From contig CAKQHO010000004.1 of the NCBI GenBank assembly GCA_934234185.1, positions 15,576-79,575 on the forward strand: a DNA stretch of 64,000 bases, in the 5' to 3' direction. A program made the translations under genes and the position numbers. The first letter of the stretch is position 1. Each line of letters starts with the position of its first letter. Below the pieces are notes generated by a model, which had not been told where the DNA came from, searched no databases, and worked only from the letters and a program-made list of their open reading frames with translations. The stretch comes from an uncultured Psychrobacillus sp. Its GTDB lineage: Bacteria; Bacillota; Bacilli; Bacillales_A; Planococcaceae. Positions 38,872 through 60,980 of the stretch are shown in pieces.

Positions 38872-38900
38872 CTTGCCCCTGTAGTTTAATGGATATGACG
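38872..38900 (+). repeat. attL core: 29-bp direct repeat containing the first 26 nt of tRNA-Arg (truncated copy)
   Basis: cttgcccctgtagtttaatggatatgacg is identical to 60952-60980. The sequences diverge immediately on both sides. Confidence 0.9.
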
Positions 38901-38936
38901 CGGCAAGATTGCGATGGGCAATCGCTATAAAACCGG

Positions 38937-39036
38937 TCGTACTGCGATAGCGCAGCGATACCTACGTAGTATTCTTTCGCTTAAAATACTACGTAAGAAT
39001 ATGACGTAACCTCCAATACCTCCGTTGATTCGCGTA
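38937..39036. repeat. left-arm repeat cluster (candidate arm-type recombinase/RDF binding sites)
   Basis: tcgtactgcgatagcgca (38937-38954) and atactacgtaagaatatgacgtaa (38986-39009) recur at 60801-60818 and 60777-60800. There is an internal palindrome, tacgtagtatt (38963-38973) / aatactacgta (38985-38995). aatacctccgttgattcgcgta (39015-39036) is inverted relative to 60870-60890. Confidence 0.75.
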
Positions 39037-40029
39037 ATAACGAATTGGACGGGGGTTTTTATATTGTCACGAAAATCAATACAGAAGTCGTTGGTAAACG
39101 AAATCAATAGGGCGGTAGGAAGAGAAGATAAGGTGAGTGCCGTTTCCTTTGTGGATGCCATTGATACGTTTATTAATAACGGAGAAATAAAAGGACTCTC
39201 TGAACGTACATTATTCACTTATAACCACGAATTAAAACGTCTAAACTTGCATTTTATTAAAAACGGTGTAGACACGTCGGACATACTTAATATTCGGGAG
39301 TCACATTACGAACAGTTTGTAACTGATTTGCTTAAAGCAGGGTACGCGAGAACTACGATAGGTATGCGTCTTCAGACGGCCAAGATTCTTGGGAACTTTT
39401 GTGTCCGTAAGGGTTATATACCTAAGAATTACGCGGCGGAGGTGCCATCATTAAAGGTGAGAAAAAAGGTTGGCGATACTTTTACAAAGTCGCAACTTAA
39501 GCGTATCTTGGCTTCTCCTGATGTTACTACCTTTGAAGGTTTACGTGACTTAACGATGATGTTGGTATTTTCTGATACAGGCATTCGGTTGAGCGAATTG
39601 CAAGCCATCAAAATTAAAGATATTGTATTCTCTGACAATGCTTTAAATGTTCAACGTACAAAGAACGGCTATGCCCGGCGTATTCCACTTACAAAGCGTT
39701 TAGGAGACGTTTTAAGGCTCTATCTACAAGTCAGAGGTGTGGAAGATGCAAATGACTTACTCTTTGTTAAATCGGATAATACGGGCATTTCTCAAGTGAC
39801 TATACAGTTTCAGATACGTGAACATGGACGTAGAAGCGGTGTTATTAAACAAGTCCAATGTAGCCCTCACGTATTCCGTAGAACATTTGCTAAGTTTAAG
39901 ATACAGGCAGGGGTAGACATATTTACTTTACAAGCACTAATGGGTCACAGTGACATAGGAGAGTTGCGTAATTACGTCGCTGTTTATTCTACTGATTTAG
40001 ATGCCGCGATAGAAAAGGGGATAGATTAA
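39025..40029 (+). CDS. tyrosine recombinase / integrase (Int1)
   Basis: Catalytic signature 'TGIRLSE' (Arg), 'HVFRRTFA' (HxxR), 'LMGHSD' (His), 'RNYVAVY' (Tyr). Adjacent to attL. The true start is uncertain; GTG at 39133 follows AGGAAGAG. Confidence 0.88.
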   Translation: MIRVITNWTGVFILSRKSIQKSLVNEINRAVGREDKVSAVSFVDAIDTFINNGEIKGLSERTLFTYNHELKRLNLHFIKNGVDTSDILNIRESHYEQFVTDLLKAGYARTTIGMRLQTAKILGNFCVRKGYIPKNYAAEVPSLKVRKKVGDTFTKSQLKRILASPDVTTFEGLRDLTMMLVFSDTGIRLSELQAIKIKDIVFSDNALNVQRTKNGYARRIPLTKRLGDVLRLYLQVRGVEDANDLLFVKSDNTGISQVTIQFQIREHGRRSGVIKQVQCSPHVFRRTFAKFKIQAGVDIFTLQALMGHSDIGELRNYVAVYSTDLDAAIEKGID

Positions 40030-40111
40030 TTTAGATTCAAAATAAAAGAAAATTTTAAAATGAGCTTGGATATAATTTTTCAAGCTCATTTTTATATGCT
40101 TTTATAGGAGC

Positions 40112-40348
40112 TCACTTTTTCAAATTTTTTATTATATCTTCATTCCACATTAAAAATTGCCAGGTGCGTTTAGCGTATCCTCCATATCCATTATCTTTTT
40201 GGCTTATTTCAGCAAATTGCTTGCCTAATTCTGTTAAAACCCACTTACCTGGTTCGCCGTTGATGTAACCATTTTCTTTCAATAACAAGTTTACCTCTCT
40301 TGATGTAATACCTAAAACTGTTCCAAGCATCTTGGCAGACATATTCAT
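40112..40348 (-). CDS. small DNA-binding-like protein (regulator or excisionase candidate)
   Basis: ATG at 40348 follows AGAGGAGGG. HTH-like 'SAKMLGTVLGITSREVNLLLKE'. AT-rich patch, second gene of a two-gene minus-strand operon. Confidence 0.5.
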   Translation of the reverse strand: MNMSAKMLGTVLGITSREVNLLLKENGYINGEPGKWVLTELGKQFAEISQKDNGYGGYAKRTWQFLMWNEDIIKNLKK

Positions 40349-40410
40349 GTATTTCCCTCCTCTTCTAAATTTGCAGTACTCAAGCTTCAATTTAAAATAG
40401 CTGATTTCTC

Positions 40411-40644
40411 TTATTCTACGATAAAAATATCCTCGACTGCATACTTCTTAGGGCGTTCCTTTTCGATACTGATTTGATTTAAGACGGAGAGAATGGAAAC
40501 GATATTTCCTAAACTGATTGATTTGCTACTGCCATTCACCATGTCTCTTATAGTTCCTGGACGGATCTTCGATTCTACTGCTAATTTGTTAATCGTTATA
40601 TCGAGTTCTTTTAGCGTATGTCCTAAAGTGAATTTAACTTCCAT
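40411..40644 (-). CDS. XRE-family HTH regulator
   Basis: ATG at 40644 follows AGGGAGG. 'LKELDITINKLAVESKIRPGTIRDMVNGSSKSISLGNI' has the Cro/C1-type HTH pattern. Confidence 0.65.
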   Translation of the reverse strand: MEVKFTLGHTLKELDITINKLAVESKIRPGTIRDMVNGSSKSISLGNIVSILSVLNQISIEKERPKKYAVEDIFIVE

Positions 40645-40917
40645 CCCCGTTACCTCCCTATTTATTTCCATTATAGCGTATGGACAAGCTAAATAAATAT
40701 GACGAAAATTGTAATACTTTTAAAGTAGTACGAATAAAGTACGATATAAACAATTCCAGATGACGGTCCTGTTCGATTTCTACGTTGGAATCGGATTAGG
40801 TAACGGTTAATACTTACCTATACAACGCCTGCAACACGATTTTTCTACTTCCAGTTAGGCGCAACTCTTACTACGTAAGATAACCGTCTGTGGCGATAAC
40901 TTTAAGGAGGGGTATCG

Positions 40918-42279
40918 ATGTTATTCGAGGTGATAACGACTTCACTTATGGGAGGGATAGCGCTAAATGCGTTTGTGAAAAGGAAGGGATTAGTTACGAA
41001 TGATTCGGGGAAAATTCAGCGGATCATTTCACTTAGCGGATTAAACGTTCGCGATGGGAAAGACGTACTCACTACGCAACTTATACGTAAAAAGCAATAC
41101 GAGTGGGGCTGGGAGTATTCTTATCGCATCCCGTTAGGGCGTAGCTACGAGGACTATCTCGCTAAACAGCGCGTCCTCGAGGATGGACTAAACAATCGAC
41201 GCCAGCGGATAACATTTGCGGACTTGAAGGCGTTGCAGCTAGACGGCAATATCATCGAGAATTTAAAAAACTTATGGACTAATAAGTTGACTGAACGGAA
41301 GGAAATCGAGATTATATTCGATGGATTGCTTAAAATACGCGTCTATAACGAGCCATTACCTTCGGAGGTGCCGTATGTACCTGGCGCTAATTGGAGCGTA
41401 CCTATTGGCGTTACTCGCGATAGGAATACGTTTAAATTCCACGACTTCGAGCGTATTCCTCATGTGGTCTTAGGTGGCGCTACTAGATACGGTAAATCAA
41501 ACTTTATCAATACGATGATTACGAGCTTGCTGCAGAGTAATCCCGATCATTTACGTTTACATCTTATCGATTTAAAGGGCGGTGTAGAGTTATGCGATTA
41601 CGAGAACATACAACAGACGGTATCTATTGCTTACGAGCCGGAAGAAGCCTTAAATACTCTACGCACTGCCTACGAGGAAATGAGGGAGTTACAGATGCGT
41701 TTACGTGTACTAGGGAAGAAGAACGTCCAGGAGGCAGGTATTAAGGAACGCCATTTCGTGATTATCGACGAAGTTGGCGAACTAAATCCGAGTGAAGCGG
41801 TAACTCGTGAGGAAAAATCTCTTAAACTTGAATGTCAGACGTTAATGAGTCAGATTGCTAGATTAGGCGCAGGATTAGGCTTCAGACAGATTCTTGCTAC
41901 GCAATATCCGACTGGCGATTGTATACCGCGTCAGTGTAAGCAAAATAGCGATGCGAAGATAGCTTTTCGAGTACAATCGGCTACTGCGTCAAGGGTCGTA
42001 TTAGACGAAAGTGGTGCCGAGTTATTGCCGCAAATTAAAGGTCGTGCTATCTATCAAACGGCTGATAAGCGAGAGATACTGCAAACGCCTCTTATTACTA
42101 CCGAGATTATTCAAGGAACGATTAGGCCTTACATCGCAGAGAAGGAGGCTAAGGCGATTGATAAAGAAATCACTAGACCAACGCGACGAGAAGATACTGC
42201 TGGCGCTCAAAAAGTGGGACTTTCTAACGCGGGACCAGTTACAGACGTACTTCAAGTTAGGTTCGATACGGAATACTAA
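40918..42279 (+). CDS. FtsK/SpoIIIE-family DNA-translocase / coupling-protein-like ATPase
   Basis: N-terminal TM ('LFEVITTSLMGGIALNAFV'), Walker A 'GGATRYGKSN', Walker B 'HFVIIDEVGEL', 'ILATQYP' (the FtsK ATQRP-like motif). Strong RBS AAGGAGGGG. Confidence 0.85.
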   Translation: MLFEVITTSLMGGIALNAFVKRKGLVTNDSGKIQRIISLSGLNVRDGKDVLTTQLIRKKQYEWGWEYSYRIPLGRSYEDYLAKQRVLEDGLNNRRQRITFADLKALQLDGNIIENLKNLWTNKLTERKEIEIIFDGLLKIRVYNEPLPSEVPYVPGANWSVPIGVTRDRNTFKFHDFERIPHVVLGGATRYGKSNFINTMITSLLQSNPDHLRLHLIDLKGGVELCDYENIQQTVSIAYEPEEALNTLRTAYEEMRELQMRLRVLGKKNVQEAGIKERHFVIIDEVGELNPSEAVTREEKSLKLECQTLMSQIARLGAGLGFRQILATQYPTGDCIPRQCKQNSDAKIAFRVQSATASRVVLDESGAELLPQIKGRAIYQTADKREILQTPLITTEIIQGTIRPYIAEKEAKAIDKEITRPTRREDTAGAQKVGLSNAGPVTDVLQVRFDTEY

Positions 42280-42760
42280 TAGAGTCCTAAAGGAGCTATC
42301 ACCGTATCTTTTATCGATTCGAGACGGCTATCAGACGATTTATTATCTAAATAACGAGGGTAGAGCTTATGTCGATTGCTCTAAAATCCGCAAGAAAGCA
42401 TCCAACGTAAAACATACCGTCATGCGTAACCAGTTCTGGCTACATAACGGCTGTCCTCCCGACTGGAAGAACGAAGTTAAAGTCACGGATGGGAAGGTTA
42501 AAGCGGTAGTAGATGCGATGTTTACGAAGAGTTTGCAAACGCATTTCCTCGAAGTGGACCACGCACAGATCATGCGAGAGAATAGGGCGAAGATAGGGCG
42601 ATTTAAGGAGTTTTACGAGCGAGGTCTTATCGAAAAGACGCTTGGACACTTTCCAATCGTTGTGTGGCTTACCACAACGGAACATAGGCGTAGACAATTG
42701 GAGGAAGCGTCGAAGGTCTTGCCGCGCTTTAGAGTATACACGTTAGAGGATTTACGATAA
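42158..42760 (+). CDS. replication-relaxation family protein (relaxase/replication-initiator-like)
   Basis: N-terminal 'RDEKILLALKKWDFLTRDQLQTYF' is a winged-helix pattern typical of that family. The TTG start at 42158, 9 nt after GAAGGAGG, is inferred. The ORF-track start at 42011 would add 49 aa inside the FtsK-like gene. Confidence 0.6.
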   Translation: MIKKSLDQRDEKILLALKKWDFLTRDQLQTYFKLGSIRNTNRVLKELSPYLLSIRDGYQTIYYLNNEGRAYVDCSKIRKKASNVKHTVMRNQFWLHNGCPPDWKNEVKVTDGKVKAVVDAMFTKSLQTHFLEVDHAQIMRENRAKIGRFKEFYERGLIEKTLGHFPIVVWLTTTEHRRRQLEEASKVLPRFRVYTLEDLR

Positions 42761-42775
42761 AAGGGAGGAAATCGA

Positions 42776-43300
42776 ATGTTTAACCGTAAGCATAAAATCG
42801 AGGTCGTACCGGAATCCGAATATACGGACTTCAGCCATCGCGTACCAGGTGACGCATATGCAACGAGAAAGACGGTCGCAATAGCGGCTACGGTGCCTGC
42901 AGCGGTAAGTATCGGATTATTAGCGCATAGGCTGTCGGAAGGAAACGCAAGTGCCGAGCAAGCCATAACGGCTTCAGCGCCAATAGTCGAGCAGGCTCCG
43001 ATTTTCGCTCCGCAGTATGCTCCGATACAGACGTCTAATTACGATATGATACCGACGGGATTTGTCGCTGATAAGTCGTTGGAGATGTTAGCTAACGTAC
43101 TGGATCCTGTTATTCAGATACTCGTAGCGATTAGCTTTCCGATTGCTAGCGTAATCATGATAGGCGCGTGTTTCTTCTTTATGTTCGGCAATAGCGAGAA
43201 GGCATGGTCGATGATTATGAACGCAGGACTCGGCTATGTTTTAATTCAACTATCGCCTCTATTCCTCGATATTCTGCGCAAAGTAGGCGAAGCGGTATGA
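42776..43300 (+). CDS. small membrane protein with VirB2/TrbC-like topology
   Basis: N-terminal hydrophobic segment ('VAIAATVPAAVSIGLLA') plus two C-terminal TM helices ('VIQILVAISFPIASVIMIGACFFFMFG', 'MIMNAGLGYVLIQLSPLF'). Strong RBS. The family assignment is speculative. Confidence 0.4.
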   Translation: MFNRKHKIEVVPESEYTDFSHRVPGDAYATRKTVAIAATVPAAVSIGLLAHRLSEGNASAEQAITASAPIVEQAPIFAPQYAPIQTSNYDMIPTGFVADKSLEMLANVLDPVIQILVAISFPIASVIMIGACFFFMFGNSEKAWSMIMNAGLGYVLIQLSPLFLDILRKVGEAV

Positions 43301-43397
43301 CGATTAGCTAACGAAAAGTTAATGAAGCCCTAACGGACAGTAATTTTTGCGGTGTATTAGTTTTAGTATATTGCTAGAATTTGAATTAAAGGGAGGG

Positions 43398-44369
43398 ATG
43401 ATTGTGGTACGAAAAAAATCTGTATTTACAGTGACAGATGATTTATCAGATGTATTTAATAATCTAACTATCAAGTCAGATGTAACTGTACTAAAGGCAT
43501 TAGAAATAATTCTTAAACAAATGAAAACAACTGGCAATCGTGAAAGGACTCTCTATGATTATGACAAACAAATAAACCATTTCGTTAGGATTACAGGAGT
43601 GGTAAATATCTCTGATATAACAGTTTTTCACATTTACGATTGGATTGAGAGTATGGAAGTAAGTAATGTAACTAAGTTGACCCGTTTGAAGTGTCTTAAA
43701 GCTTTCTTGAATAGATGCTTTAAACTTGGTTGGTTATCTATTCAATTTTGGAATGACATAAAAATTAAAGTTGATAGCCCGATAAAAGAGGGAGCGACAG
43801 AACAAAATGTTCAAACTTTATTAAGACATTTGGATTTTAATGATTTTTTTCAATTACGCGATGCTACAGCTATTTTGACTATGTATCAGACTGGTATTAG
43901 AATTGGTACATTATCGAAAATCACAGAGGGACACATTGACTTAGAGGAAAATGTATTACGAATACCTGGTTCAATAGTAAAAAATCATGAAGAGTTAATA
44001 CTGCCCTTTGACGATGTCTTAGCTCGTTTATTTACGGTACTATTTAAACAAAATGCCATTGTCAGAAAGAATGCAAACAGAAGTAATCAATTGGTATTTA
44101 TAACGAGAAGTGGCGGCTCTAGTCAAAATACAGCGATGAAGAATAACATAATTAGTAAACGTATTGCTCAATACGCTAAAAAATTCAATATAGAAAACGT
44201 TAATCCGCACGCTTTAAGACGTGGATTTGCAATAAATTTGCGAAAAAAGGGTGCTAATATATCACTAATTTCTAATGCATTGGGACATAGTGATTTATCG
44301 GTAACCACACGTTATTTACATTACGATAAATTAGAAATCGCAGAAGAATTACGCAATTTTCTCAAATAA
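43398..44369 (+). CDS. second tyrosine recombinase / integrase (Int2)
   Basis: 'TGIRIGTLSKI' (Arg), 'HALRRGFA' (HxxR), 'LGHSDLSVTTRYLHY' (His, Tyr). Lies in an AT-rich patch. The start is ATG 43398 or GTG 43404, after AAGGGAGGG. Confidence 0.85.
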   Translation: MIVVRKKSVFTVTDDLSDVFNNLTIKSDVTVLKALEIILKQMKTTGNRERTLYDYDKQINHFVRITGVVNISDITVFHIYDWIESMEVSNVTKLTRLKCLKAFLNRCFKLGWLSIQFWNDIKIKVDSPIKEGATEQNVQTLLRHLDFNDFFQLRDATAILTMYQTGIRIGTLSKITEGHIDLEENVLRIPGSIVKNHEELILPFDDVLARLFTVLFKQNAIVRKNANRSNQLVFITRSGGSSQNTAMKNNIISKRIAQYAKKFNIENVNPHALRRGFAINLRKKGANISLISNALGHSDLSVTTRYLHYDKLEIAEELRNFLK

Positions 44370-44410: not shown

Positions 44411-44623
44411 CTATTTACTTTCATTTTTTGAATAGAAAATAATATCTTGCACATTACAATCTAACGCCTCGCAAAGTTTTTGAAGAGTATCAAACTCAAT
44501 TCCATTATTTCTTCCATTAATGATCTTTGATATTCCATTTCTGTGTAGACCCGTCTTTTCTGCAAGGGTACTTATAGTGAATCCTTTCATTTTCATTGTT
44601 TCTTTTAATTTAATAACTATCAT
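44411..44623 (-). CDS. XRE-family repressor (CI-like)
   Basis: 70 aa. 'FTISTLAEKTGLHRNGISKIINGRNNGIEFDTLQKLCEAL' has the HTH_3 pattern. It is divergent from the operator-containing region. Confidence 0.8.
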   Translation of the reverse strand: MIVIKLKETMKMKGFTISTLAEKTGLHRNGISKIINGRNNGIEFDTLQKLCEALDCNVQDIIFYSKNESK

Positions 44624-44666
44624 TTTATGACCTCCTAGTAGATTCTGCTATAAATTATACTATTAG

Positions 44667-44767
44667 CACACTATAGTGTGAATGTAATTTTAAAAAACTT
44701 TTAAAATACTGTTGACTTTGCACACTATAGTGGTTATTATTGGATTAAGAGGTAAACACTATAGTGG
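44667..44767. promoter_or_regulatory. genetic switch: three CACACTATAGTG operators and a rightward sigma-A promoter
   Basis: O1 is cacactatagtgtg (44667-44680), a perfect 14-bp palindrome. O2 is cacactatagtgg (44721-44733) and O3 is aacactatagtgg (44755-44767). The promoter is TTGACT (44712-44717), 17-nt spacer, TATTAT (44735-44740), with O2 inside the spacer. Confidence 0.75.
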
Positions 44768-44797
44768 TTACTAAGATGTGTAAGAAGGGAGATAGAA

Positions 44798-46492: not shown

Positions 46493-46585
46493 CTCCGCAC
46501 TAGCGATTCTCAAACGATATAACTAGTAGGGGAAGTTCTCCGAAAAGCTCCGCACTAGCGATTTTCAAACGTTAATACTAGTATA
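46493..46585 (+). repeat. two ~38-bp direct repeats, 55 bp apart (iteron-like)
   Basis: ctccgcactagcgattctcaaacgatataactagta (46493-) and ctccgcactagcgattttcaaacgttaatactagta (46548-). Each contains an ACTAG...CTAGT inverted pair. Confidence 0.75.
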
Positions 46586-47446: not shown

Positions 47447-48652
47447 TTGACGGAAATAACAGTAGTAGATGCGGTAATGGGAAGCGGTAAGACGGAGTGG
47501 GCGATTCGATATATGAACGAAGCAAGTCCAACGGAGCATTTTATCTATATAACGCCATTCCTTGCGGAAGTAGAGCGTGTTAAGAAGAGCGTCACAGGGC
47601 GTACTTTCGTAGAGCCTACCATTTATAATGGGACGTCTAAACTCGAGGATTTGAAGCGTCTGATAGCGTCTGACAGGGACATCGTAAGTACACACGCATT
47701 ATTCGCTCGTGCTGACGAAGAAGTAATCGACTTATTGGAGCAATCGGGCTATACGCTGATACTTGACGAGGTGATGGACGTAGTAGACAGCGTTGCGATA
47801 AAGAATACGGATATAAGACGTCTACAATCTAACGGAGACATACTCATCGACAAAGAAACAAAGCGCGTTAAATGGACCGGGGATCCTGACGATAACAGTC
47901 GCTACCGAGACATACGAGAACTTGCACAAGCGGGCAATTTATACGTATTCCGTACATCGTTCATGGTATGGGCGTTTCCGCCAGCAGTATTTAAGGCGTT
48001 CCCGAAAGCTTATGTATTAACGTATCTATTTAAATGCCAGATGCAGCGATATTACTTCGATATGTTCGGCTTCGAATACGCATATAAGAGCGTTGCTATG
48101 GTAGAAGGCGATTATAGGTTGATAGATTACGATGTAAAGCGCGAGAGACGAGAAGAACTGTATAACTTAATCGAAGTCTACGAAGGCAGATTGAACGATA
48201 TAGGAAACGGCAAGTTTGCACTAAGCCAAGCGAAGCTAAAGAAGTGTGACGGTGGATTCCTCGATTCAATAAGGAATAATACGGCAAACTTTTTCCGCCA
48301 TTACGCTAATGCGAAGAAAGCGGACGCATATCTATCTACGCTAAAGGAAGTGCAGGGCCTAGTAACGCCAAGAGGCTTTAAGTCGTCGGTCATTGCGCAT
48401 AACATACGAGCTACTAACGAGTATTCGGACAGATGGGCGGTCGCATACCTGATTAACCGATTTATGAATAAGGACAAAATGGCGTTTTTCCAAGATAACG
48501 GTGTATCGGTAGACGAGGACCTATATGCAATATCGGAATTATTACAGTGGATTTGGCGCTCGAGAATCAGACGAGGGGAGCCAATCAAAGCGTATATTCC
48601 TGCGGAGCGAATGAGGGGACTACTAAAAAGATGGGCTAATTACGAAATCTAA
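47447..48652 (+). CDS. P-loop NTPase, SF2-helicase-like
   Basis: TTG start after TTAGGAGGCGG. Walker A 'AVMGSGKTEWA', Walker B 'LILDEVMD', 'VSTHALF' (motif III-like), and 'QWIWRSRIRRGEPI' (motif VI / arginine-finger-like). Confidence 0.55.
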   Translation: MTEITVVDAVMGSGKTEWAIRYMNEASPTEHFIYITPFLAEVERVKKSVTGRTFVEPTIYNGTSKLEDLKRLIASDRDIVSTHALFARADEEVIDLLEQSGYTLILDEVMDVVDSVAIKNTDIRRLQSNGDILIDKETKRVKWTGDPDDNSRYRDIRELAQAGNLYVFRTSFMVWAFPPAVFKAFPKAYVLTYLFKCQMQRYYFDMFGFEYAYKSVAMVEGDYRLIDYDVKRERREELYNLIEVYEGRLNDIGNGKFALSQAKLKKCDGGFLDSIRNNTANFFRHYANAKKADAYLSTLKEVQGLVTPRGFKSSVIAHNIRATNEYSDRWAVAYLINRFMNKDKMAFFQDNGVSVDEDLYAISELLQWIWRSRIRRGEPIKAYIPAERMRGLLKRWANYEI

Positions 48653-50450: not shown

Positions 50451-50451
50451 A

Positions 50452-53221: not shown

Positions 53222-53620
53222 ATGAAAAAATCTACAGTAGAAGCAGAAAACACTAAAAAATTCACTATTGAAGGAGAAGCCCACGAGTTAAAACTTAATT
53301 GGGAATCGATGAAGCAATTAAACAAAATGTATGGAGATGGACAGTTCCAATTGATAGGCAGTGCATTAACGGGGGATTTAGAAACTTATAGTAGAATAAT
53401 TTACGCTGGTTTAATCCATACAAATAAAGATTATACAGTCTATCAAGTTGAAGATGCTATTAACGAAGCTTTCGAAAGTGGAAAAATCACACTTTCAGAG
53501 CTGTACGACACTATTTACACTGTATTACTAGATAATCCGTTCTATAAAGCTACAGTCGATAAGATGATCGGTAAGAGTTCGGAAGTAAAAGAGGCACTTG
53601 AAATGGTGCGAGGTAGATAA
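53222..53620 (+). CDS. phage tail assembly chaperone-like protein
   Basis: 'FTIEGEAHELKLNWESMKQLNKMYG...GSALTGDLETYSRIIYAGLIHT...TVYQVEDAI...LSELYDTIYTVLLDN' follows the pattern I associate with siphovirus gpG-type chaperones. Unusually, it lies downstream of the TMP. Confidence 0.45.
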   Translation: MKKSTVEAENTKKFTIEGEAHELKLNWESMKQLNKMYGDGQFQLIGSALTGDLETYSRIIYAGLIHTNKDYTVYQVEDAINEAFESGKITLSELYDTIYTVLLDNPFYKATVDKMIGKSSEVKEALEMVRGR

Positions 53621-54026: not shown

Positions 54027-54140
54027 ATGATAAATGAAGAGTTAAGCAGACAAGCGGAGATGTTACTTGTAGAAATCAACCTTATAAACGAAGAAACTTC
54101 GGCAACTCTCGAGAGAATCGAGGCTTCGGCTTATGAGTAA
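54027..54140 (+). CDS. 37-aa hypothetical protein
   Basis: Not in the ORF track. ATG follows AGAAGGAGAA. Its stop overlaps the HNH gene start. Confidence 0.4.
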   Translation: MINEELSRQAEMLLVEINLINEETSATLERIEASAYE

Positions 54141-54651
54141 AAAGATATGTAGTATTTGTAATGAAATGAAGCCATTAGAAATATTCGAAAAGGACAACAG
54201 GAATAAAAGTAAGTTAGGGGCTAGGTGCCGTCCTTGTAAAAACAACATAGAAAGCAACGCTAAGTCGTATCATTCTTTTTGGAATCTCTCACTCAAAAAA
54301 GGGGTTCCGGTAGAAGTTGAAAAAGCGGATATAAAGATACTTTTTGAGGTTTTTGAGAATACGTGTATCTATTGTGGTAAAAGCGAAGAAGAGGCAGGCA
54401 CTATGCATCTGGAACATATTGTGCCAGTGGTTGCAGGAGGTCGCTCTCATATTTCTAATTTAGTAGTATCTTGTAAGGGATGCAATATGAAAAAAGGAAA
54501 AAAGAGTGTCTTAGAATTTTACCGCTCGCACCAACCGTTCGACGGGCGTCGCCTTGATTACATTTTTAAACACGTTGCTTATTTTTCGAATAGGGATCCC
54601 GAAGAAGTTGCTCGAGAATATTACGGTGCGGCTAAGAAGGAGGTTGGTTAA
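54133..54651 (+). CDS. HNH endonuclease with N-terminal zinc-ribbon
   Basis: 'CIYCGKSEEEAGTMHLEHIVPVVAGGRSHISNLVVSCKGCNMKKG' HNH core. N-terminal 'CSICNE...CRPCK'. Confidence 0.85.
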   Translation: MSKKICSICNEMKPLEIFEKDNRNKSKLGARCRPCKNNIESNAKSYHSFWNLSLKKGVPVEVEKADIKILFEVFENTCIYCGKSEEEAGTMHLEHIVPVVAGGRSHISNLVVSCKGCNMKKGKKSVLEFYRSHQPFDGRRLDYIFKHVAYFSNRDPEEVAREYYGAAKKEVG

Positions 54652-54800
54652 TGCGAAAAGTAGAACGAGGCGTCACTATCGTCGAAGTCGAAGGCGGCTT
54701 TCCGATGACCGTTTATAAGCTTCGGAAGATGTCGTTAGAAGCGATAAAACGATATGGACTGGAAAAGTACGTAAGGGTGAGTGATAAGGATGACGCATAA
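54651..54800 (+). CDS. 49-aa hypothetical protein
   Basis: Not in the ORF track. TAATG overlap with the HNH stop. RBS AAGAAGGAGG upstream. Confidence 0.45.
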   Translation: MRKVERGVTIVEVEGGFPMTVYKLRKMSLEAIKRYGLEKYVRVSDKDDA

Positions 54801-55161
54801 TCGGAAAATAACGAAGTATATCGAGAATCACTGCGCTAATTATGCCGGGGGCGGTCTTTGTCACCTTGCTACGTCGGAAAACGGCTCTCGACTATGCCCA
54901 TTCTTCTACGACTTGGGGCGTAAATGCAAATACGCAGAGCAATCCGTACTACCTGGCGATTATTCGATACTAGCGCTATACAATATGAACAACAAGGGAA
55001 CTACTTCTGCCGACTACTGCGAACGATGCAAAGAGCCATTTGAGCGGTCGAGTCCTCGCCAAATACGTTGTAAATCATGCACTGAAATCGTGCGTAGGAA
55101 TAATCGGAGATATTATAACGCTAACTACCGCAATAAGACGGTTAATAAAAGTACATTTTAG
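54790..55161 (+). CDS. cysteine-rich protein ('Cys-rich VLP'-like)
   Basis: 'HCANYAGGGLCHL...CPFFYDLGRKCKYAEQSVLPGD' contains the VLP motif. C-terminal zinc ribbon 'YCERCKEPF...IRCKSC'. Confidence 0.5.
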   Translation: MTHNRKITKYIENHCANYAGGGLCHLATSENGSRLCPFFYDLGRKCKYAEQSVLPGDYSILALYNMNNKGTTSADYCERCKEPFERSSPRQIRCKSCTEIVRRNNRRYYNANYRNKTVNKSTF

Positions 55162-55282
55162 AAGCTGAACAGCTCGTATTTGGCTAGTTTTAACGTATAT
55201 ATACGGGATAAAAAGAAGTCAGGTGTATTTCTAAGGGGATACGCTTATTTGTCGTCAAAATGTACTTGCGGGAGTGGTGACA

Positions 55283-55543
55283 ATGTACAAAGTGAAGATA
55301 AAAAGAACAAAGGAAGAGACGAAGCTGAACGTTAAAACTAGTGTCCCGGACGAAAAGCCGTTCATATTCAAGTCATTGAGTCCGACGATAACGCGTGAAC
55401 ATATACGACTGATACTTCCGAGGATGATTGATTGTGAACGGGACAAGCGTAATAGGAAAGCGTATCGGAAAGAGGAACTTACGAAACTACGTGAAGAGAA
55501 AGCAGCTAAGGCAGAGCGTTTTAAGGAGGTGCCGAATGAGTAA
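55283..55543 (+). CDS. hypothetical basic protein
   Basis: ATG at 55283 lies 5 nt after GGGAGTGG. 86 aa, Lys/Arg/Glu-rich. Confidence 0.5.
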   Translation: MYKVKIKRTKEETKLNVKTSVPDEKPFIFKSLSPTITREHIRLILPRMIDCERDKRNRKAYRKEELTKLREEKAAKAERFKEVPNE

Positions 55544-55670
55544 ATTTAAAAAACGAGATGAGCGCGACAGTAAGATGCGTAAAAAACGAGTAGTATCGGT
55601 CAATAAAAACGGTATTAAAGCCGAAGGTCAACGTCCATCAAAACCGGTATATACTCGCGAAAATGAATGA
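55536..55670 (+). CDS. 44-aa highly basic protein
   Basis: ATG follows AAGGAGGTGCCGA and overlaps the upstream stop. 'MSKFKKRDERDSKMRKKRVVSVNKNG...'. Confidence 0.45.
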   Translation: MSKFKKRDERDSKMRKKRVVSVNKNGIKAEGQRPSKPVYTRENE

Positions 55671-55687
55671 GAATGGGAGTATGATAA

Positions 55688-56089
55688 ATGCCTAGACAAC
55701 GACCGATTGAGCGATATGTGCCAAAGCCTGCTAGGCAAACGATAAGTAGGTTGCGGCGTTATGAATTAGAAGAACAATTTAAAGCGGCAGACAAAAAAAC
55801 TTACCTTGAAGGAGAGAAAATAATTATGAATAAATGGGCTGGAGTTAAAGAAATGGTGAAAAGTCAGGTACAAAAACATTTTAATACAGAGGAAGAATTA
55901 CAACAATTCCTAAAAGAAAACCCGCAGTATACGATAAATCAAAGATTCGGATTTTATACAAAGATGATAAATGTAGTGCTTTATGAAAGAGGTTACGCAT
56001 TTACAAAGCAAAACGAGATCGGCTACCGAGTGCCTACACGCTGGCTTACTGCGGAGGAAGTCGAAGAATACCTGAAGGAAACCGCTTAA
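55688..56089 (+). CDS. hypothetical protein (paralog A)
   Basis: 133 aa. The C-terminus 'VVLYERGYAFTKQNEIGYRVPTRWLTAEEVEEYLKE' resembles the C-terminus of the next gene. Confidence 0.6.
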   Translation: MPRQRPIERYVPKPARQTISRLRRYELEEQFKAADKKTYLEGEKIIMNKWAGVKEMVKSQVQKHFNTEEELQQFLKENPQYTINQRFGFYTKMINVVLYERGYAFTKQNEIGYRVPTRWLTAEEVEEYLKETA

Positions 56090-56093
56090 TAAC

Positions 56094-56405
56094 ATGATTA
56101 TCGAATATCACGAGTGCTGGCCTGTTCGTAAAATGGTCCGCAGGCAGGAGTATCGGTCGTTCTCTAATCGGGACGACCTTTCGTTATGCCTTCATACGTG
56201 CGACTACGATAACCATTGCGTGCTAGAAGAATCTGCGGAGGCTATAACGGTAATACTATACGACTATAGCTACGCATTGACTTCGCACGACCGATTCGGA
56301 GAGCGATATGTCATACGCTGGCTATCCGAAGAAGAGAGCGAGAGATACCTCGCGGATAATACGTATCATCCATATAAAAACGCAAGGAATGACGAAAATG
56401 ACTAA
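56094..56405 (+). CDS. hypothetical protein (paralog B)
   Basis: 103 aa. C-terminus 'VILYDYSYALTSHDRFGERYVIRWLSEEESERYLAD'. Confidence 0.55.
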   Translation: MIIEYHECWPVRKMVRRQEYRSFSNRDDLSLCLHTCDYDNHCVLEESAEAITVILYDYSYALTSHDRFGERYVIRWLSEEESERYLADNTYHPYKNARNDEND

Positions 56406-56568
56406 ATTAAACGTTTACTATAACGCAGTTACACACGCTATTAATATCGATCGTGGCTCGCAGATAACCGAAATAAAGATGCCGAAAGACGTTACTGCGA
56501 TAGAAGTTACAAGAATGATAACGTCAGAGGCGTTCAAGCCGACTATCGACGGAATTATACTAAAATAA
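56398..56568 (+). CDS. 56-aa hypothetical protein
   Basis: ATG at 56398 lies 9 nt after AAGGA and overlaps the upstream stop. Confidence 0.45.
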   Translation: MTKLNVYYNAVTHAINIDRGSQITEIKMPKDVTAIEVTRMITSEAFKPTIDGIILK

Positions 56569-56581
56569 CGGGGGAATAACG

Positions 56582-57157
56582 ATGACTAACTTACAAACAT
56601 TCGAGAAACAAATTAACGGAGACATTCAACGCTATAGAACTGCAGTAAACTTCGCTACTGGTACAGAGGAAGAGAAAGCGGCAAAGCAAGCGGAAGCATT
56701 CGCGGAACTAGAAAGCAAAGTAACCGCTACACGCGAGGATTACGAGCAATATCGTACTGGTGAGATTGAGCGCACTGAAAAAGAAAGACACTTGTTTAGG
56801 CATCCTGAATTAAAGCACCAAGATTCAAAAGTTGCGAAATCAATTGCGGATAAGTTCTACGTAGAATTGATCGCTGCAGAAGACGCGCAAGCACAGAACA
56901 ACGTATTAAGGGAGCTAGAAGATACGCTGAAATACTTCGAAGATGGCGCTAAATTCGCTTTCTACGAGCATATTCCGATGATTAACTCGCTATTAGTCGA
57001 TAAGGCAGCGTCTAAGGGCGCATTGCAAGCGGTAATTGCCGAGATGAAGGATTATGTGAATCCGTATGAAGTTTGGCATAAAGAAGCGCAAGAGCTACCG
57101 ACTGTTATCGGTGAGGACTTCGATACGATTAAGGCTGAACTTGAACAGGGGGAATAG
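56582..57157 (+). CDS. hypothetical acidic helical protein
   Basis: 191 aa. RBS GGGGGAA. Coiled-coil-like, so a scaffold-like function is possible but unsupported. Confidence 0.6.
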   Translation: MTNLQTFEKQINGDIQRYRTAVNFATGTEEEKAAKQAEAFAELESKVTATREDYEQYRTGEIERTEKERHLFRHPELKHQDSKVAKSIADKFYVELIAAEDAQAQNNVLRELEDTLKYFEDGAKFAFYEHIPMINSLLVDKAASKGALQAVIAEMKDYVNPYEVWHKEAQELPTVIGEDFDTIKAELEQGE

Positions 57158-57159
57158 TT

Positions 57160-57561
57160 ATGCGTCCTACCCGAAGATATAAGGAATATAGCGATAAATT
57201 CTCAACTGAAGAAGGTAAAACCCGGCGCAATGACATTCTTGCGTCGGAATACCCTCAATATACCCACGGCGGCGTTACATTAGACGCTAGTAAATTTCCC
57301 GTTGGCTATAACGATAGTGGGCATCTAATCGCAAGGAATATAAATACCGGAAAATATGAGCCGTATACGGAAACGATACCAGGGAAATTAACCTCAAAAT
57401 ACGATAATTTCGGTATATTGAACGAAGGATTTAATAACGATGGAGTGAACGATTTAGTATCGGGTCTAGCGGTAATAGAAGGTAGCGTGTATCTTCATAC
57501 TCTGCCGTCAAAACCAACGGAAGCATTTAGACGAGCTACTCCGAAAATACATTACGTATAA
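57160..57561 (+). CDS. hypothetical protein
   Basis: 133 aa. RBS AGGGGGAA. 2-nt gap from the upstream gene. Confidence 0.6.
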   Translation: MRPTRRYKEYSDKFSTEEGKTRRNDILASEYPQYTHGGVTLDASKFPVGYNDSGHLIARNINTGKYEPYTETIPGKLTSKYDNFGILNEGFNNDGVNDLVSGLAVIEGSVYLHTLPSKPTEAFRRATPKIHYV

Positions 57562-57578
57562 AATAGGGAGGAAACGCT

Positions 57579-57902
57579 ATGTACAAAGAATATCGCATCA
57601 AAGTCGAGAAGGATATTCACGGCAGAACTTCGGTTACTGGACGTCCGCAGATGCCAGGATTCCGCTATACAGTGACGGCTGAAACCGATACTAGTGTCGA
57701 GAAATTGACGTCAGTAACGAATAAGCCGCTATACGAGGCACTAGACGAGGCACTATCGATCCTGCTAATGTTACTGGCGCAACGTGACGAGCAGGCAATT
57801 GTTAAAGTCGTTCATTATACCGTACCTGTAAGCGATGGGCTTAAACGGATGCTAGCGGATAAGTACGCCAGCGAATCGCAATTCGTAAATCTGATACTAT
57901 AA
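57579..57902 (+). CDS. hypothetical protein
   Basis: 107 aa. RBS TAGGGAGGAAA. Last gene of the long rightward operon. Confidence 0.6.
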   Translation: MYKEYRIKVEKDIHGRTSVTGRPQMPGFRYTVTAETDTSVEKLTSVTNKPLYEALDEALSILLMLLAQRDEQAIVKVVHYTVPVSDGLKRMLADKYASESQFVNLIL

Positions 57903-58152
57903 ACGGCGCTCTACTTCTTAAACGGAGGTAGGGCGTCTCTTTTTTTGCTGATTTTCGGTGATAATAACTAATATATGTAATTACGTAGAGATACGTAGAA
58001 TAGAGCGCTAGAGTCCGATTGACTTGCAACGGTAAAACACGGTCAAACTCCGATTGAAAATAGCGCAATGACGTATGCATTTTAACGTAGATATAACATT
58101 AAATAAATACGCGCTTGCACAGTCGAAACATTGCACGCATAGGACACGTTCA

Positions 58153-58824
58153 TTATAGCGGTATATTATATAGAAGAAACTCCGTTTTACTGATGTCCGA
58201 TAATGCCGAATTTTGCACGATTTTCGCTATATTTTAACGGGCATAACTGTGCACTTTTCGTGTTAGATTACGTTATATTTTTTGCAATTTTAACTCGTCA
58301 AAACACGTCAAATCCATCGGAGTACATCGGAGTAAATAACGATAATTTCATGCAAGTTGGCGCAAGTTTTATCGTACATTATCAGACTATAACCGCAAGT
58401 TTACTAAAATGACGTAATTAGCTTCGTTTATATAGAAGGAATGCGGATTCTACGGTTTAGTACGCTTTAGTTTATGGTTGCGATTTCTTGCGATTTATCA
58501 GGCGACTTGCTGCCGCGTGCGAGAGTCCAAACGCTTTAAACGTGTCCATCGGTTCGATTATCGTACTAGGTCGATGTAAACTAACGAAATATTATCGCAG
58601 TATATAGAAGAAAGCCGTAAATGGCGTTTTACATACGTTGTCACTATGAGCATATCGCAGGGTTCAATCAGGCGATCCGTTCACCAGGCGATGCCTTCGA
58701 AAAACCGAGGGGTCGCATAACGTTATTATCGAATAGCTATATAGAAGAAACTGCGTAATTATGATGCGACTATTTGCGACTCTACTCGGAACTAGCGCAA
58801 TTATCGAAGGTTATATAGAAGGAA
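58153..58824 (+). repeat. iteron field: five TATATAGAAGRAA boxes, four of them preceded by ATTATMG
   Basis: Boxes lie at 58167-58179, 58429-58441, 58601-58613, 58738-58750 and 58812-58824. ATTATAG/ATTATCG lies 3-7 nt upstream of boxes 1, 3, 4 and 5. The region also holds CAGGCGA three times (58499, 58669, 58685) and TTGCGATTT twice in tandem (58478, 58488). Confidence 0.8.
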
Positions 58825-58920
58825 AGCGAAATAATCAGTTCCGAATAGTTCCGATTTACAAGGTGAGAGGGTCTGGCGTGCGTGTCTCCGATTACTTTGC
58901 GTAATCATAACTGTTAAGTA

Positions 58921-58949
58921 TTGACTACGATATGCCAACGTGATAAGAT
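58921..58949 (+). promoter_or_regulatory. sigma-A promoter candidate of the serine recombinase, bracketed by CGTAATCAWAA repeats
   Basis: TTGACT, 17-nt spacer, TAAGAT, with TG at -15/-14. CGTAATCATAA at 58900-58910, CGTAATCAAAA at 58961-58971, CGTAATCATAA at 58974-58984. Confidence 0.5.
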
Positions 58950-58998
58950 AGCCTTATAAACGTAATCAAAACTCGTAATCATAAATGGAGGCTATCGA

Positions 58999-59562
58999 AT
59001 GACACGATACGGCTACGCAAGGGTAAGCGGAACGTCACAGGACTTAACAGAACAGATTGCGAGATTACAAGACGCAGGATGCACCGAGATATTAAGCGAG
59101 AAGCATACCGGTACTAAGAAGGAAAGACCGGAGTTCCAACGTGTGCTATCGCTATTGCAAGAAGGAGATACGTTAGTAGTTACGAAGCTAGACCGCTTTG
59201 CTCGTTCGGCAGAGGATGGCATAACGATTATCAAGGCGCTTATAAGACGCGGTGTAAGCGTTCATATACTGAATATGGGCGTAGTAGAGGACACGCAGAT
59301 AGGTCGCTTGCTTCTTACGATAATGGCAGGCTTCGCGGAGTTCGAACGAGATATGATCGTGGAGAGACTAGCGGAAGGAAAGGCGCAAGCAAAGCAGCGT
59401 GACGACTACCGAGAAGGTAGACCGAATAAGTTTTCGAAGAAGCAACTCGACCATGCTATGACGTTACTAGAGACGCATAGCTATACGGAAGTCGAGCGCA
59501 TGACAGGCATAAGTAAAGCGACACTGACGAGACACAAACGAAAGATCAAAGCGAAGACATGA
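58999..59562 (+). CDS. small serine recombinase (resolvase/invertase family)
   Basis: '[12 protein letters not shown]' (catalytic Ser), '[12 protein letters not shown]', and C-terminal HTH '[14 protein letters not shown]'. 187 aa. Confidence 0.9.
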
Positions 59563-59664
59563 TCGAATGTGGTCGTGTCTTTTTTTATACGGGGGGGCTT
59601 GCGAAAATCAAACCGCGCTGTCCTGGTGGCTGAAATTTACGAGCAAAAAATTTTCACTTGGGGG

Positions 59665-60636
59665 TCAATCTGAATTTAGTTCTTTCTCCTTTTGTAGTAT
59701 TAACCTTTCTAATTTTGTCCAGCTTTCTTTAAACATTGAAGGATCTTCATTGAAAAATTTAACCTCCACTTTTGAATCATCTTCTTCTTTTTTGAAATCT
59801 GTTTCCAGAAGACCATTTAATATACCTAAAGTAATATCAACGTTAGATATAGGGCTGCCAGTAAACAAATCTAGGGAAGTAAAGAGAAAATGTTTTTTGT
59901 TAAAATCATCGAGGTGATTAAATTTAAACTCTTCACAGTATTTAGTTAGTATTTTGTAATACGTATAAACTGTTAACTCAATATTCTGCTTAGTGTTCGA
60001 TTGTTTATCGATTGGTTGGTTGTCGTAAAACAGCTCGTTATCTGACTGTAGCAAAAAGAAATTTTCTATGCTCATATTGCAGTGGACAAATTTTGAGAGA
60101 GATCCATAGGTTTCTTTATAAAAAATTAACAAGCCAGTTTCTTTCGCCATTTCCTCTACTGATGGGATAACTTTATATTGCTTGTTGGTTTGGTCAGTAT
60201 ATAGTTGCTTGCAGTCATTTATTATTTGATGACGTTTGTCCCAAAGTTTTGTATTAACTAAGTATTTTACTGGTCGAGAGTTTACTAAAGCGTATAGTAA
60301 TTGAGCTTGGTCTCTTACTCTTTCTCTAAGGTAGTATTCAAATGAATTAGTCTTTGAAAGATACTCAATTCTAATGAAAATTTCTACAATTTTCCTGGAA
60401 ATTATCTTTGCATCGTGAACGTGGTTATGCTCTATTAATGTAAAGTATGAATGCATACTTTTATATGCATTTAAAAGCAATAAATTTAATACCCTGTTTT
60501 TAGGGTTCGATTCTTCGAATACCATTTCTTTTGATATCTCTGTGCTTATTTTCATAAGGTCTTCATAGGCATCTGAATAGATTTTTGGGTTATTTACTAA
60601 ATCCCTTAACATCTCTTTTAATTCCTTTTTATCCAT
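59665..60636 (-). CDS. hypothetical cargo protein, possibly DUF5677 / AbiV-like
   Basis: ATG at 60636 follows TAGGAGGT. An all-helical-looking, Lys/Asn-rich 323-aa protein in a very AT-rich patch. 'LLLLNAYKSMHSYFTLIEHNHVHDAKIISRKIVEIFIRIEYL' and 'YGSLSKFVHCN' resemble the DUF5677 pattern as I recall it. Confidence 0.3.
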   Translation of the reverse strand: MDKKELKEMLRDLVNNPKIYSDAYEDLMKISTEISKEMVFEESNPKNRVLNLLLLNAYKSMHSYFTLIEHNHVHDAKIISRKIVEIFIRIEYLSKTNSFEYYLRERVRDQAQLLYALVNSRPVKYLVNTKLWDKRHQIINDCKQLYTDQTNKQYKVIPSVEEMAKETGLLIFYKETYGSLSKFVHCNMSIENFFLLQSDNELFYDNQPIDKQSNTKQNIELTVYTYYKILTKYCEEFKFNHLDDFNKKHFLFTSLDLFTGSPISNVDITLGILNGLLETDFKKEEDDSKVEVKFFNEDPSMFKESWTKLERLILQKEKELNSD

Positions 60637-60776
60637 ATTGTAATACCTCCTATTCCATACCATAATATACCACTACTATATATGAAAAAGGATCTTATTT
60701 ATAGATTATTTTTAAAGATGCTAAACATAATTGGAAAAGATACCTTGCACAGAAAACACAAGCGTTAATCCTACAA

Positions 60777-60890
60777 ATACTACGTAAGAATATAACGTAA
60801 TCGTACTGCGATAGCGCATCGAAATATAAGCGATATTGCCTTAGCGATTAATCGTATGGTATACTAACCTACGTGAATCAACGGGGTATT
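60777..60890. repeat. right-arm repeat cluster (partners of the left-arm sites)
   Basis: atactacgtaagaatataacgtaa (60777-60800) and tcgtactgcgatagcgca (60801-60818) are direct copies of the left-arm motifs. tacgtgaatcaacggggtatt (60870-60890) is the inverted partner of 39015-39036. Confidence 0.75.
60836..60865 (+). promoter_or_regulatory. outward-facing promoter candidate inside the element, ~90 nt upstream of the intact tRNA-Arg
   Basis: TTGCCT, 18-nt spacer, TATACT, preceded by TGG (extended -10, TGnTATACT). Confidence 0.4.
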
Positions 60891-60951
60891 ACAAGGGGAT
60901 TTCGCATTAAATGCGGATAAAGCCAGTGATACCAACGGTTTGAGGCTTACG

Positions 60952-60980
60952 CTTGCCCCTGTAGTTTAATGGATATGACG
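60952..60980 (+). repeat. attR core: 29-bp direct repeat (start of the intact tRNA-Arg)
   Basis: Identical to 38872-38900. Confidence 0.9.

Follow-up and report, generated by a model that had tools for sequence, protein, structure and literature searches.

A phage-derived 22-kb element probably inserted into the D-arm of a tRNA-Arg(CCG) gene in an uncultured Psychrobacillus

The interval between clpP and tRNA-Arg(CCG) in an uncultured Psychrobacillus sp. (assembly GCA_934234185.1, contig CAKQHO010000004.1, positions 15,576 to 79,575) raises the question of how 22 kb of DNA came to lie with a 5′ fragment of a tRNA gene at one end and the intact gene at the other. We analysed the 64-kb stretch around this locus (the window) as a follow-up to an original prediction that a mosaic element had integrated there. 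Our reading, which we consider probable, is that 38872-60980 is one integrated copy of a conserved, phage-derived ~22-kb element, inserted site-specifically by its integrase Int1 into the D-arm of tRNA-Arg(CCG). As predicted, an exact 29-bp repeat, CTTGCCCCTGTAGTTTAATGGATATGACG, brackets 22,051 bp (38901-60951) between clpP and the tRNA. It has exactly two copies in the window, at 38872-38900 and 60952-60980, both on the + strand; chance expectation for 29-mer matches in shuffled sequence is 0, and there is no third copy in the window with up to three mismatches allowed. Counted from repeat start to repeat start, the element is 22,080 bp long. ARAGORN finds one tRNA in the window, tRNA-Arg(CCG) at 60954-61028, and the Rfam model RF00005 places it at 60955-61026 (59 bits versus a gathering score of 29); both agree with the prediction that the repeat comprises 3 nt of upstream sequence plus tRNA nt 1-26, with the intact gene on the right and a stump on the left next to int1. 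The repeat stops short of the anticodon stem. A sensitive search with the whole tRNA detected no other tRNA fragments in the window, and for want of a third fragment we rejected the idea that two elements lie in tandem at a single att site. The features that define the two boundaries are:

38872-38900, + strand: attL core, the left repeat copy (3 nt upstream plus tRNA nt 1-26)
38901-38936, + strand: putative degenerate remnant of the remaining tRNA copy (CGG, CAAGATT, GCGATGGGCAA), from an anchored alignment with the related contigs L006, L010 and L009
38937-39009, + strand: P′ arm with arm-type repeats TCGTACTGCGATAGCGCA, ATACTACGTAGG (inverted) and ATACTACGTAAG
60775-60818, + strand: P arm with arm-type repeats ATACTACGTAAG and TCGTACTGCGATAGCGCA, motifs shared with the P′ arm
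60952-60980, + strand: attR core, the right repeat copy
60955-61026, + strand: intact tRNA-Arg(CCG) (ARAGORN; Rfam, 59 bits)
61033-61069, + strand: native intrinsic terminator downstream of the tRNA (terminator scan)

Two long motifs of 18 bp and 17 bp are each found a single time within either end of the element and have no other copy in the window: TCGTACTGCGATAGCGCA at 38937 and 60801, and ATACTACGTAAGAATAT at 38986 and 60777. In addition, the 12-mer ATACTACGTARG has four matches in the window versus 0.5 expected, three of them at the two ends. Because these arm motifs lie inside both ends, joining the ends gives an attP with arm-type repeats on either side of the core, which is the usual attP layout for integrases with arm-type sites; we consider the repeats putative integrase-binding sites. 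The locus thus has a tyrosine recombinase at the junction, a full tDNA together with an end fragment in the same orientation, and arm repeats on both sides, as in tRNA-targeting integrative elements, and with the 5′ end as its displaced fragment and the intact tDNA downstream of the island, it belongs with the 5′-fragment class. The base composition of the predicted foreign-looking DNA is not clearly foreign (GC 0.32-0.48 inside the element versus ~0.39 outside); what stands from that claim is an integrase-bounded element. A further arm-site-like sequence, TTACTACGTAAG, with one mismatch to the int1 arm motif, is present at 40868-40879 upstream of the FtsK-like gene.

In the mechanism that we propose, Int1 would recombine an attP, with ATACTACGTARG and TCGTACTGCGATAGCGCA arm-type repeats on either side of its core, with an attB in the D-arm of the chromosomal tRNA-Arg(CCG) beside clpP. 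The attP of the element would retain only a 5′ piece of the tRNA (nt -3 to +26), followed by the decayed remnant. At the far junction, a full tRNA would then consist of the 5′ third from the element and the 3′ two-thirds from the host, followed by the native terminator, and by this reasoning the attR tRNA would have 26 nt of its 5′ end from the element and 46 nt of its 3′ end from the host. The predicted circular attP junction reads ...GGCTTACG-CTTGCCCCTGTAGTTTAATGGATATGACG-CGGCAAGATT... and the predicted empty attB reads ...AGTAAAGTCT-CTTGCCCC...GACG-TAAGATTCCGG....

The candidate recombinase is encoded directly inside attL, with its start 163 bp from it:

39064-40029, + strand: int1, Xer-like tyrosine integrase of 321 aa (Pfam PF00589, 5.8e-29)

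Its catalytic R-K-H-R-H-Y residues (R175, K200, H269, R272, H295 and Y304) are present in invariant columns of a 30-sequence alignment numbered on int1. By identity, int1 homologs fall into two groups that differ in the part of the tRNA that they carry. Members of the 54-60% group, in Psychrobacillus, Sporosarcina, Lederbergia and ~60-kb phage contigs, carry the tRNA from approximately nt 7-10 to the 3′ end (3′-type). Those in Lederbergia, Sporosarcina and Psychrobacillus have the intact tRNA at the int-proximal junction, and two of the phage contigs have a tRNA copy without the 5′ acceptor strand, starting at nt 7 (L008/L012) or nt 9-10 (L011). The Logan contig L099, with a Psychrobacillus-type element, ends in GCCGAGCGCAAA-GTGTAATGGATAACACACAAGCCTCCGAA, so that its displaced copy begins at nt 9. 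Members of the 70-78% group, like the window, carry only the 5′ part of the tRNA (5′-type), and the block of identity ends at nt 26 in the window, ~nt 27 in L009, nt 37 in L006 and nt 20 in L010; L006 is a 61-kb phage contig, the fragment of which, CTTGCCCTTGTAGTGTAATGGATAACACACAAGCCTCCG, is identical to the Psychrobacillus tRNA from -3 to +37. L013 (48% identity) is a further 5′-type: on the strand opposite to int it has TTGTAA-17-TATAAT and then tRNA nt 1-41. A scan of a genome collection with int1 returned a single locus, in Lederbergia, the far junction of which lies outside the 10-kb flank. We also observed that Logan contigs break at the edges of tRNA identity blocks (L010 at 1-60, L097 at 1-30 and L099 in its last 30 nt).

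Because the 3′-type and 5′-type identity blocks overlap only at nt 9-26 (nt 9-20 with L010), the crossover would lie there, i.e. in the 5′ strand of the D stem together with the D loop, if its position is conserved in the family. Past the break, L006, L009 and L010 keep a CGGAGGGCA-type remnant resembling the 3′ acceptor strand, and the window continues with CAAGATT...GATGGGCAA. We take these 3′ acceptor-like remnants to be what internal deletion left of a longer tRNA copy formerly present in attP, and the 5′-type attP would have arisen in this way.

The same remnants could be accounted for by classical integration followed by local decay: an attP with the 3′ remainder of the tRNA would have rebuilt the tRNA at attL, a later deletion would have left the stump, and the attR copy would have been complete already. 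More distant family members do have an intact tRNA at attL, and the sequence after the stump resembles a decayed anticodon-arm and acceptor remnant. However, the attR copy of a 3′-type relative lacks nt 1-8, so that a 3′-type ancestor would leave no complete attR tRNA, and the nearest integrase relatives (70-78%) share the stump design. Among them, the L006 site is flanked by phage genes to its left and right, which makes the stump a property of attP rather than the outcome of decay after integration, and L010 starts in P-arm sequence and continues through the core into the P′ arm, suggesting an unintegrated attP form in that sample. Moreover, the same attL is found in a second sample (99.96% identity over 20.6 kb including attL) and in a 100% identical 2.9-kb contig. 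We therefore consider this sequence of events very improbable, and prefer that the element arrived with an attP already holding only the 5′ piece.

An insertion that displaces the 5′ end of a tRNA gene poses the question of how the rebuilt tRNA is transcribed. Three features bear on this:

38833-38861, + strand: native tRNA-Arg promoter-like site TTGAAT-17-TATAAT (promoter scan, 10/12 matches)
39018-39060, + strand: hairpin and U-run, the 3′ strand being the int1 Shine-Dalgarno sequence (folding -18.1 kcal/mol, z -2.5)
60836-60865, + strand: element-borne promoter-like site TTGCCT-18-TG-n-TATACT (promoter scan)

The native promoter-like site, a motif also present upstream of the intact tRNA in Psychrobacillus L096, now precedes only the 26-nt stump and the P′ arm as far as the 39018-39060 hairpin. 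After integration, this host promoter would drive the stump, and the stump transcript would meet the hairpin and U-run that overlap the int1 ribosome-binding site. We folded the homologous leaders individually (window 39018-39060, L005-L010 and L096), and in all eight a hairpin with the int Shine-Dalgarno sequence as its 3′ strand lies just before the int start, while the stem sequences differ; a U-run follows in seven of the eight. The hairpin probably stops or insulates transcripts begun at the tRNA promoter, and such leaders could both terminate transcription of the upstream tRNA and gate the translation of int. The rebuilt tRNA would lie behind the promoter-like site in the P arm of the element, which is 86 bp upstream of the repeat and oriented toward the tRNA, and we infer that the intact tRNA is expressed from it. 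The same motif is present at the matching place in the attP of L006, and the 3′-type L099 has a TTGCGT-18-TATACT site, suggesting that the P-arm promoter may predate the switch to the 5′-type. In the usual account of 3′-end targeting, the tRNA retains its own promoter; this is also the case in the 3′-type members, in which the element gives the 3′ part and a hairpin/U-run directly upstream of int.

The left neighbour of the element is clpP (38122-38715, - strand), and clpP, its upstream region and the promoter-like site lead directly into the stump. This flank aligns with Psychrobacillus sp. FSL K6-1415 (84%) as far as 38895, approximately tRNA nt 21, and the same place beside clpP is taken up by an intact tRNA-Arg(CCG) in Psychrobacillus, Sporosarcina siberiensis and Lederbergia citri; judged by this alignment, the left flank is the native tRNA upstream region. 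The orthologous clpP/tRNA-Arg loci in these three genera already hold related elements. Looking up the exact ClpP and Crh proteins yielded no locus other than this one, occupied, and the look-up of the right-flank SLH protein returned no record. The host genome is represented by metagenome assemblies only, and those copies are also occupied. A scan of metagenome DNA for a tRNA spanning the core boundary gave no match, and a looser D-arm pattern gave only chance matches within coding sequence. Unintegrated attP forms are present for the related phages L006, L008 and L010. Of the host sequences upstream of clpP, 38796-38812 contains a direct repeat, GGTCAAGGAAGGTCAAA, that is conserved in Psychrobacillus and Sporosarcina; it resembles a CtsR operator and belongs to ordinary host regulation.

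What kind of element, then, occupies the site? We determined its gene content by Pfam and PHROG profile searches of the listed open reading frames (ORFs); the sensitivity of these searches limits the absences reported below, and several ORFs had no match. The genes listed in the original prediction (FtsK-like, Replic_Relax, tape measure, tail chaperone, HNH, helix-turn-helix (HTH) repressors and serine resolvase) all matched Pfam or PHROG families. The order opens with int1, a minus-strand 92-aa ORF and HTH gene, the FtsK-like/Replic_Relax/174-aa genes, int2 and a CI-like repressor; it continues with small ORFs and HTH proteins, a YonV_C-family protein, tape-measure and tail-chaperone-like genes, and HNH and Cys-rich genes; and it ends with small ORFs, a 1.1-kb noncoding region, the serine resolvase and a minus-strand DUF5677 gene. 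Beyond int1, the features are:

40112-40671, - strand: 92-aa ORF and HTH_3 regulator, divergent from the FtsK operon
40918-43300, + strand: three-gene phage-type cassette of an FtsK/SpoIIIE-like gene (40918-42279), a Replic_Relax ORF (42011-42760) and a gene for a 174-aa membrane protein (42776-43300) (Pfam, PHROG)
43305-43397, + strand: conserved noncoding region upstream of int2, candidate second attP remnant (arm-like ACGAAAAGTTAA and CCTAACGG; conserved window versus L009)
43398-44369, + strand: int2, second tyrosine integrase, catalytic residues present
44411-44780, - strand: CI-like HTH repressor (44411-44623) and three palindromic ACACTATAGTG operator-like sites (44668-44767)
47447-49388, + strand: YonV_C-family protein of 401 aa (phrog_2467) and a 229-aa protein, both conserved cargo
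50109-52566, + strand: tape-measure-like genes, a 113-aa fragment ORF and a 704-aa ORF
53222-53620, + strand: tail-assembly-chaperone-like gene (Pfam PF12363, 1.7e-13; phrog_183)
54133-55161, + strand: HNH endonuclease (54133-54651) and Cys-rich protein (54781-55161), conserved in all family members examined
55274-57902, + strand: small conserved ORFs with no assigned function
57903-58998, no strand: noncoding region of 1.1 kb that precedes the resolvase gene and contains TATATAGAAGRAA in five dispersed copies and CGTAATCATAA in three
58999-59562, + strand: serine resolvase (Pfam PF00239, 1.2e-38; ortholog in L099)
59665-60663, - strand: DUF5677 protein; this end cargo is variable, and L099 has a YhjD-like gene instead

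The FtsK-like and Replic_Relax genes had been taken as conjugation-type. If the FtsK-like protein were a coupling protein and Replic_Relax a relaxase, with the conjugative system encoded elsewhere, the 22 kb would be an integrative and mobilizable element (IME), and both the Pfam names (FtsK_SpoIIIE and Replic_Relax) and a TrbC/VirB2-like match of the 174-aa membrane protein point in this direction. This match, however, scores 21 bits, below the Pfam cut-off of 27.9, and the nearest annotated relatives of the genes are a three-gene cassette in Bacillus siphophages (52-55% identity); in the Replic_Relax ORF, the homology begins at approximately residue 51. One 58-kb phage contig reads, in sequence, tail, lysis, FtsK-Rep-membrane protein, actin-like protein, int, DnaB and primase. 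In ~58-kb phage contigs the cassette lies between the lysis genes and attP, just upstream of attP and int, and in L115 and L118 it is likewise upstream of attP/int. Pfam searches for VirB4, VirB6, a type IV secretion system (T4SS) or a canonical relaxase gave no match, and the gene content does not indicate an IME or an integrative and conjugative element (ICE). By its homology, the cassette is phage-type rather than conjugative, and we consider a mobilizable element improbable.

In agreement with the original prediction, no capsid, portal, terminase, tail tube or T4SS/VirB4 family was matched by Pfam and PHROG among the listed ORFs. ARAGORN found no tRNA gene inside the element, and this is not the arrangement of tRNA-dependent lysogeny. 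The tape-measure gene is reduced: the 704-aa ORF spans only approximately positions 200-730 of ~1,600-aa tape-measure profiles, the L099 ortholog of the 113-aa ORF (~30% identical) matches the start of these profiles, and the short, split form is kept in relatives. The predicted iterons proved to be five dispersed TATATAGAAGRAA and res-like repeats upstream of the resolvase gene rather than a phased tandem array; these repeats may be res sites, promoters or a replication origin. A single-sequence AlphaFold model of the 401-aa YonV_C-like protein reached a predicted local distance difference test score of only 38.6, and PDB sequence searches of four ORFs without assigned function, PADLOC and NCBIfam yielded only a weak PDC-S69 match. 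The noncoding gap that precedes the HTH gene at 46774 contains two 36-nt direct repeats (46493-46583; 89% identical, 55 bp apart).

The gene order argues against an ad hoc mosaic. At the same locus, Psychrobacillus sp. FSL K6-1415 shares the order that begins with an int1-like gene and extends as far as the Cys-rich gene, a matching Logan contig is collinear onward to the resolvase, and the same order from int1 to resolvase is found in Psychrobacillus and several metagenome contigs of 21.5-22.2 kb. Contigs with the element family measure 21,470, 21,651, 21,945 and 22,224 bp, and the window element 22,080 bp. In L098 the first integrase is only 24% identical to int1, while FtsK-Rep-membrane protein-int2-YonV_C-tape measure-HNH is retained. 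We did not count L118 (IMG/VR, 21,455 bp) as a full family member; it has the FtsK-Rep-membrane-protein cassette beside an int2-like gene, and its remaining genes are phage-like (actin-like, DnaB-like). Megablast of the 22 kb gave no match in phage or plasmid collections. Judged by its shared order, the 22 kb is a conserved phage-derived element family, with a length about one third that of the 58-65-kb phages that share the integrase and FtsK cassette.

The main alternative, for the window copy in particular, is an immobile prophage remnant, i.e. the 22 kb left of a ~60-kb temperate phage after large deletions, with the repeats as relics and no excision, transfer or helper. The lack of head, portal, terminase, most tail, lysis and DnaB/primase genes would be explained, as would the truncated and split tape-measure gene, the TerS-like gene missing from the window copy (see below) and the integrase and FtsK cassette in common with 58-61-kb phage contigs. 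Against this, the reduced order recurs at 21,455, 21,470, 21,651, 21,945, 22,080 and 22,224 bp across hosts and samples, with protein identities of 45-80%, and L098 has a swapped first integrase, as in a propagating lineage; in addition, the repeat has no mismatch and neither integrase has lost its catalytic residues. Because gene order and size are kept at 45-80% protein identity while the outer integrase is swapped, we favour a propagating element over independent prophage decay, and consider a remnant possible but unlikely.

Regarding life style, the element, as we read it, would still be mobile, as a satellite or a reduced phage needing a helper; that the family as a whole is satellite-like and helper-dependent is our preferred suggestion, made tentatively. 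By genes alone (Pfam, PHROG), the integrase and repressor with no capsid, portal or large terminase are the combination of phage-inducible chromosomal islands (PICI). In L099, 12565-12933 encodes a 122-aa small-terminase-like (TerS-like) protein (phrog_2538, 7e-19) between the orthologs of the window ORFs 56094-56405 and 56308-56568. It is absent from the window at ~56.35 kb, and tblastn with the L099 protein found no small-terminase-like gene in the window; a tailspike-like gene of the Psychrobacillus-type member is also absent from the window copy. Of the packaging-redirection functions of PICI, neither TerS nor a cos site was found in the window, although an HNH gene is present.

The second tyrosine integrase, at 43398-44369, was omitted from the original prediction. 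It is present in every family member examined and is 67-73% identical in L009, L096 and L098; together with its upstream noncoding region it occupies 43305-44369 in the window, 2100-3181 in L009, 10001-10960 in L096 and 5406-6365 in L098. The window order FtsK-Rep-174 aa-int2-repressor follows that of the 58-kb phage contig, minus the actin-like gene between cassette and int. No repeat pair bounds an int2 unit, only chance 10-11-mers being found, and on this ground we rejected int2 as a separately integrated, nested element; viral contigs scanned with int2 as a single sequence gave no match. We favour the view that int2 belongs to a second, internal integration module, not used for this insertion.

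Several points weigh against our reading of the locus. int2 is a second intact integrase to which no role is assigned. Neither an empty attB in a close relative nor the circular junction of the window element was found in the protein look-ups and metagenome DNA scans. The placement of the crossover assumes a conserved position across integrases that are only 54-78% identical, the host tRNA of L006, L008, L009, L010, L011 and L013 is itself deduced, and the block edges are approximate. The P-arm promoter is a 9/12 consensus match, such matches are no commoner than in shuffled sequence, and its role in tRNA expression is putative. Finally, the window copy is without the TerS-like gene of its relative and so may be immobile.

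How does this insertion compare with known systems? In Islander, of 3,919 islands 3,760 have a 3′ fragment and 159 a 5′ fragment, and the crossover subsites are the anticodon loop, the T loop and the T/acceptor junction only (PMC4383910). As in the Islander 5′-fragment islands, the integrase-bearing island in the window lies between a displaced 5′ fragment and an intact tDNA, but the 26-nt fragment stops before the anticodon stem, so that none of these subsites can hold the crossover (PMC4383910). A Klebsiella survey describes islands upstream of arg2 with a site comprising the 5′ acceptor half, D-stem and D-loop, and terms the D-loop a novel sublocation (bioRxiv 10.1101/2020.11.02.365908). 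Compared by description rather than sequence, these K. pneumoniae islands (integrase clade I.d) resemble the window in lying upstream of an intact tRNA-Arg gene and in having a tyrosine integrase; unlike the window, their host is a Gammaproteobacterium, both polarities in one integrase family are not reported there, and the passages searched make no mention of promoter supply by the island. The predicted rarity of a 5′/D-arm core thus stands as a minority position in the Islander counts, but it is not unprecedented: 5′/D-loop tRNA integration is rare yet documented. A review of archaeal recombinases also describes attB sites that reach over the D-loop.

A 5′ target is not peculiar to tRNA genes. 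Islands associated with dusA reportedly rebuild the 5′ end of that gene. dusA-associated integrases insert at the 5′ end of a conserved gene and share with the window a 5′-end target, but the target is protein-coding and the integrase family a different one (PMC4482086). In mycobacteriophages with tRNA-dependent lysogeny, close integrase relatives differ in the length of tRNA carried by attP; there, integration destroys the host tRNA, and its place is taken by a separate tRNA gene of the phage (PMC10865867), whereas the window tRNA is restored at the far junction by an element with no tRNA gene. The element shares with Staphylococcus aureus pathogenicity island (SaPI)/PICI satellites an integrase, a CI-like repressor with operators, replication-type genes, the lack of capsid, portal and large terminase genes and a uniform small size, as well as, in one family member other than the window copy, a TerS-like gene. 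Unlike PICI, and known here from genes alone, it is ~22 kb long with two integrases, tape-measure and tail-chaperone or tailspike-like genes and a serine resolvase, and the window copy has no TerS and no known helper. Bacillus siphophages, among them Blastoid, Glittering, Leo2 and 056SW001B, have the same FtsK-like/replication-relaxation/small-protein cassette (Rep 52-55% identity) but, unlike the window element, are complete 48-53 kb phages with full virion modules. What is new here is an example from the Bacillales, both polarities at one crossover region in one integrase family, remnants hinting at the switch, and a conserved two-integrase carrier.

In its most extended form, our proposal joins these elements into one family in which attP switched, by internal deletion, from carrying the 3′ remainder of the tRNA to carrying its 5′ end and a promoter, the host CGG-decoding tRNA became element-dependent for as long as the element is integrated, int1 came to lie behind a strong host tRNA promoter, gated by the hairpin, and the carrier is an undescribed ~22-kb two-integrase satellite lineage; as a whole, we consider this picture possible but unlikely. 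Closely related integrases with one crossover region that supply opposite halves of a tRNA form a natural series, which bears on how 5′-type sites evolve and on whether control of a host tRNA's transcription can pass to an element. If the P-arm promoter reading is true, the host tRNA probably depends on an element-carried promoter. Caryophanaceae and Bacillaceae may harbour, in the conserved ~22-kb element with two integrases, a new satellite-like lineage, and island-finding tools that expect subsites at the anticodon loop, T-loop or 3′ end may misplace such elements. Outside the element, the gap that separates a thioredoxin-reductase-like gene from a NUDIX gene contains a tandem array (33446-34053) of 3.5 copies of a 176-bp unit, with 84% matches and internal 21-bp sub-repeats.

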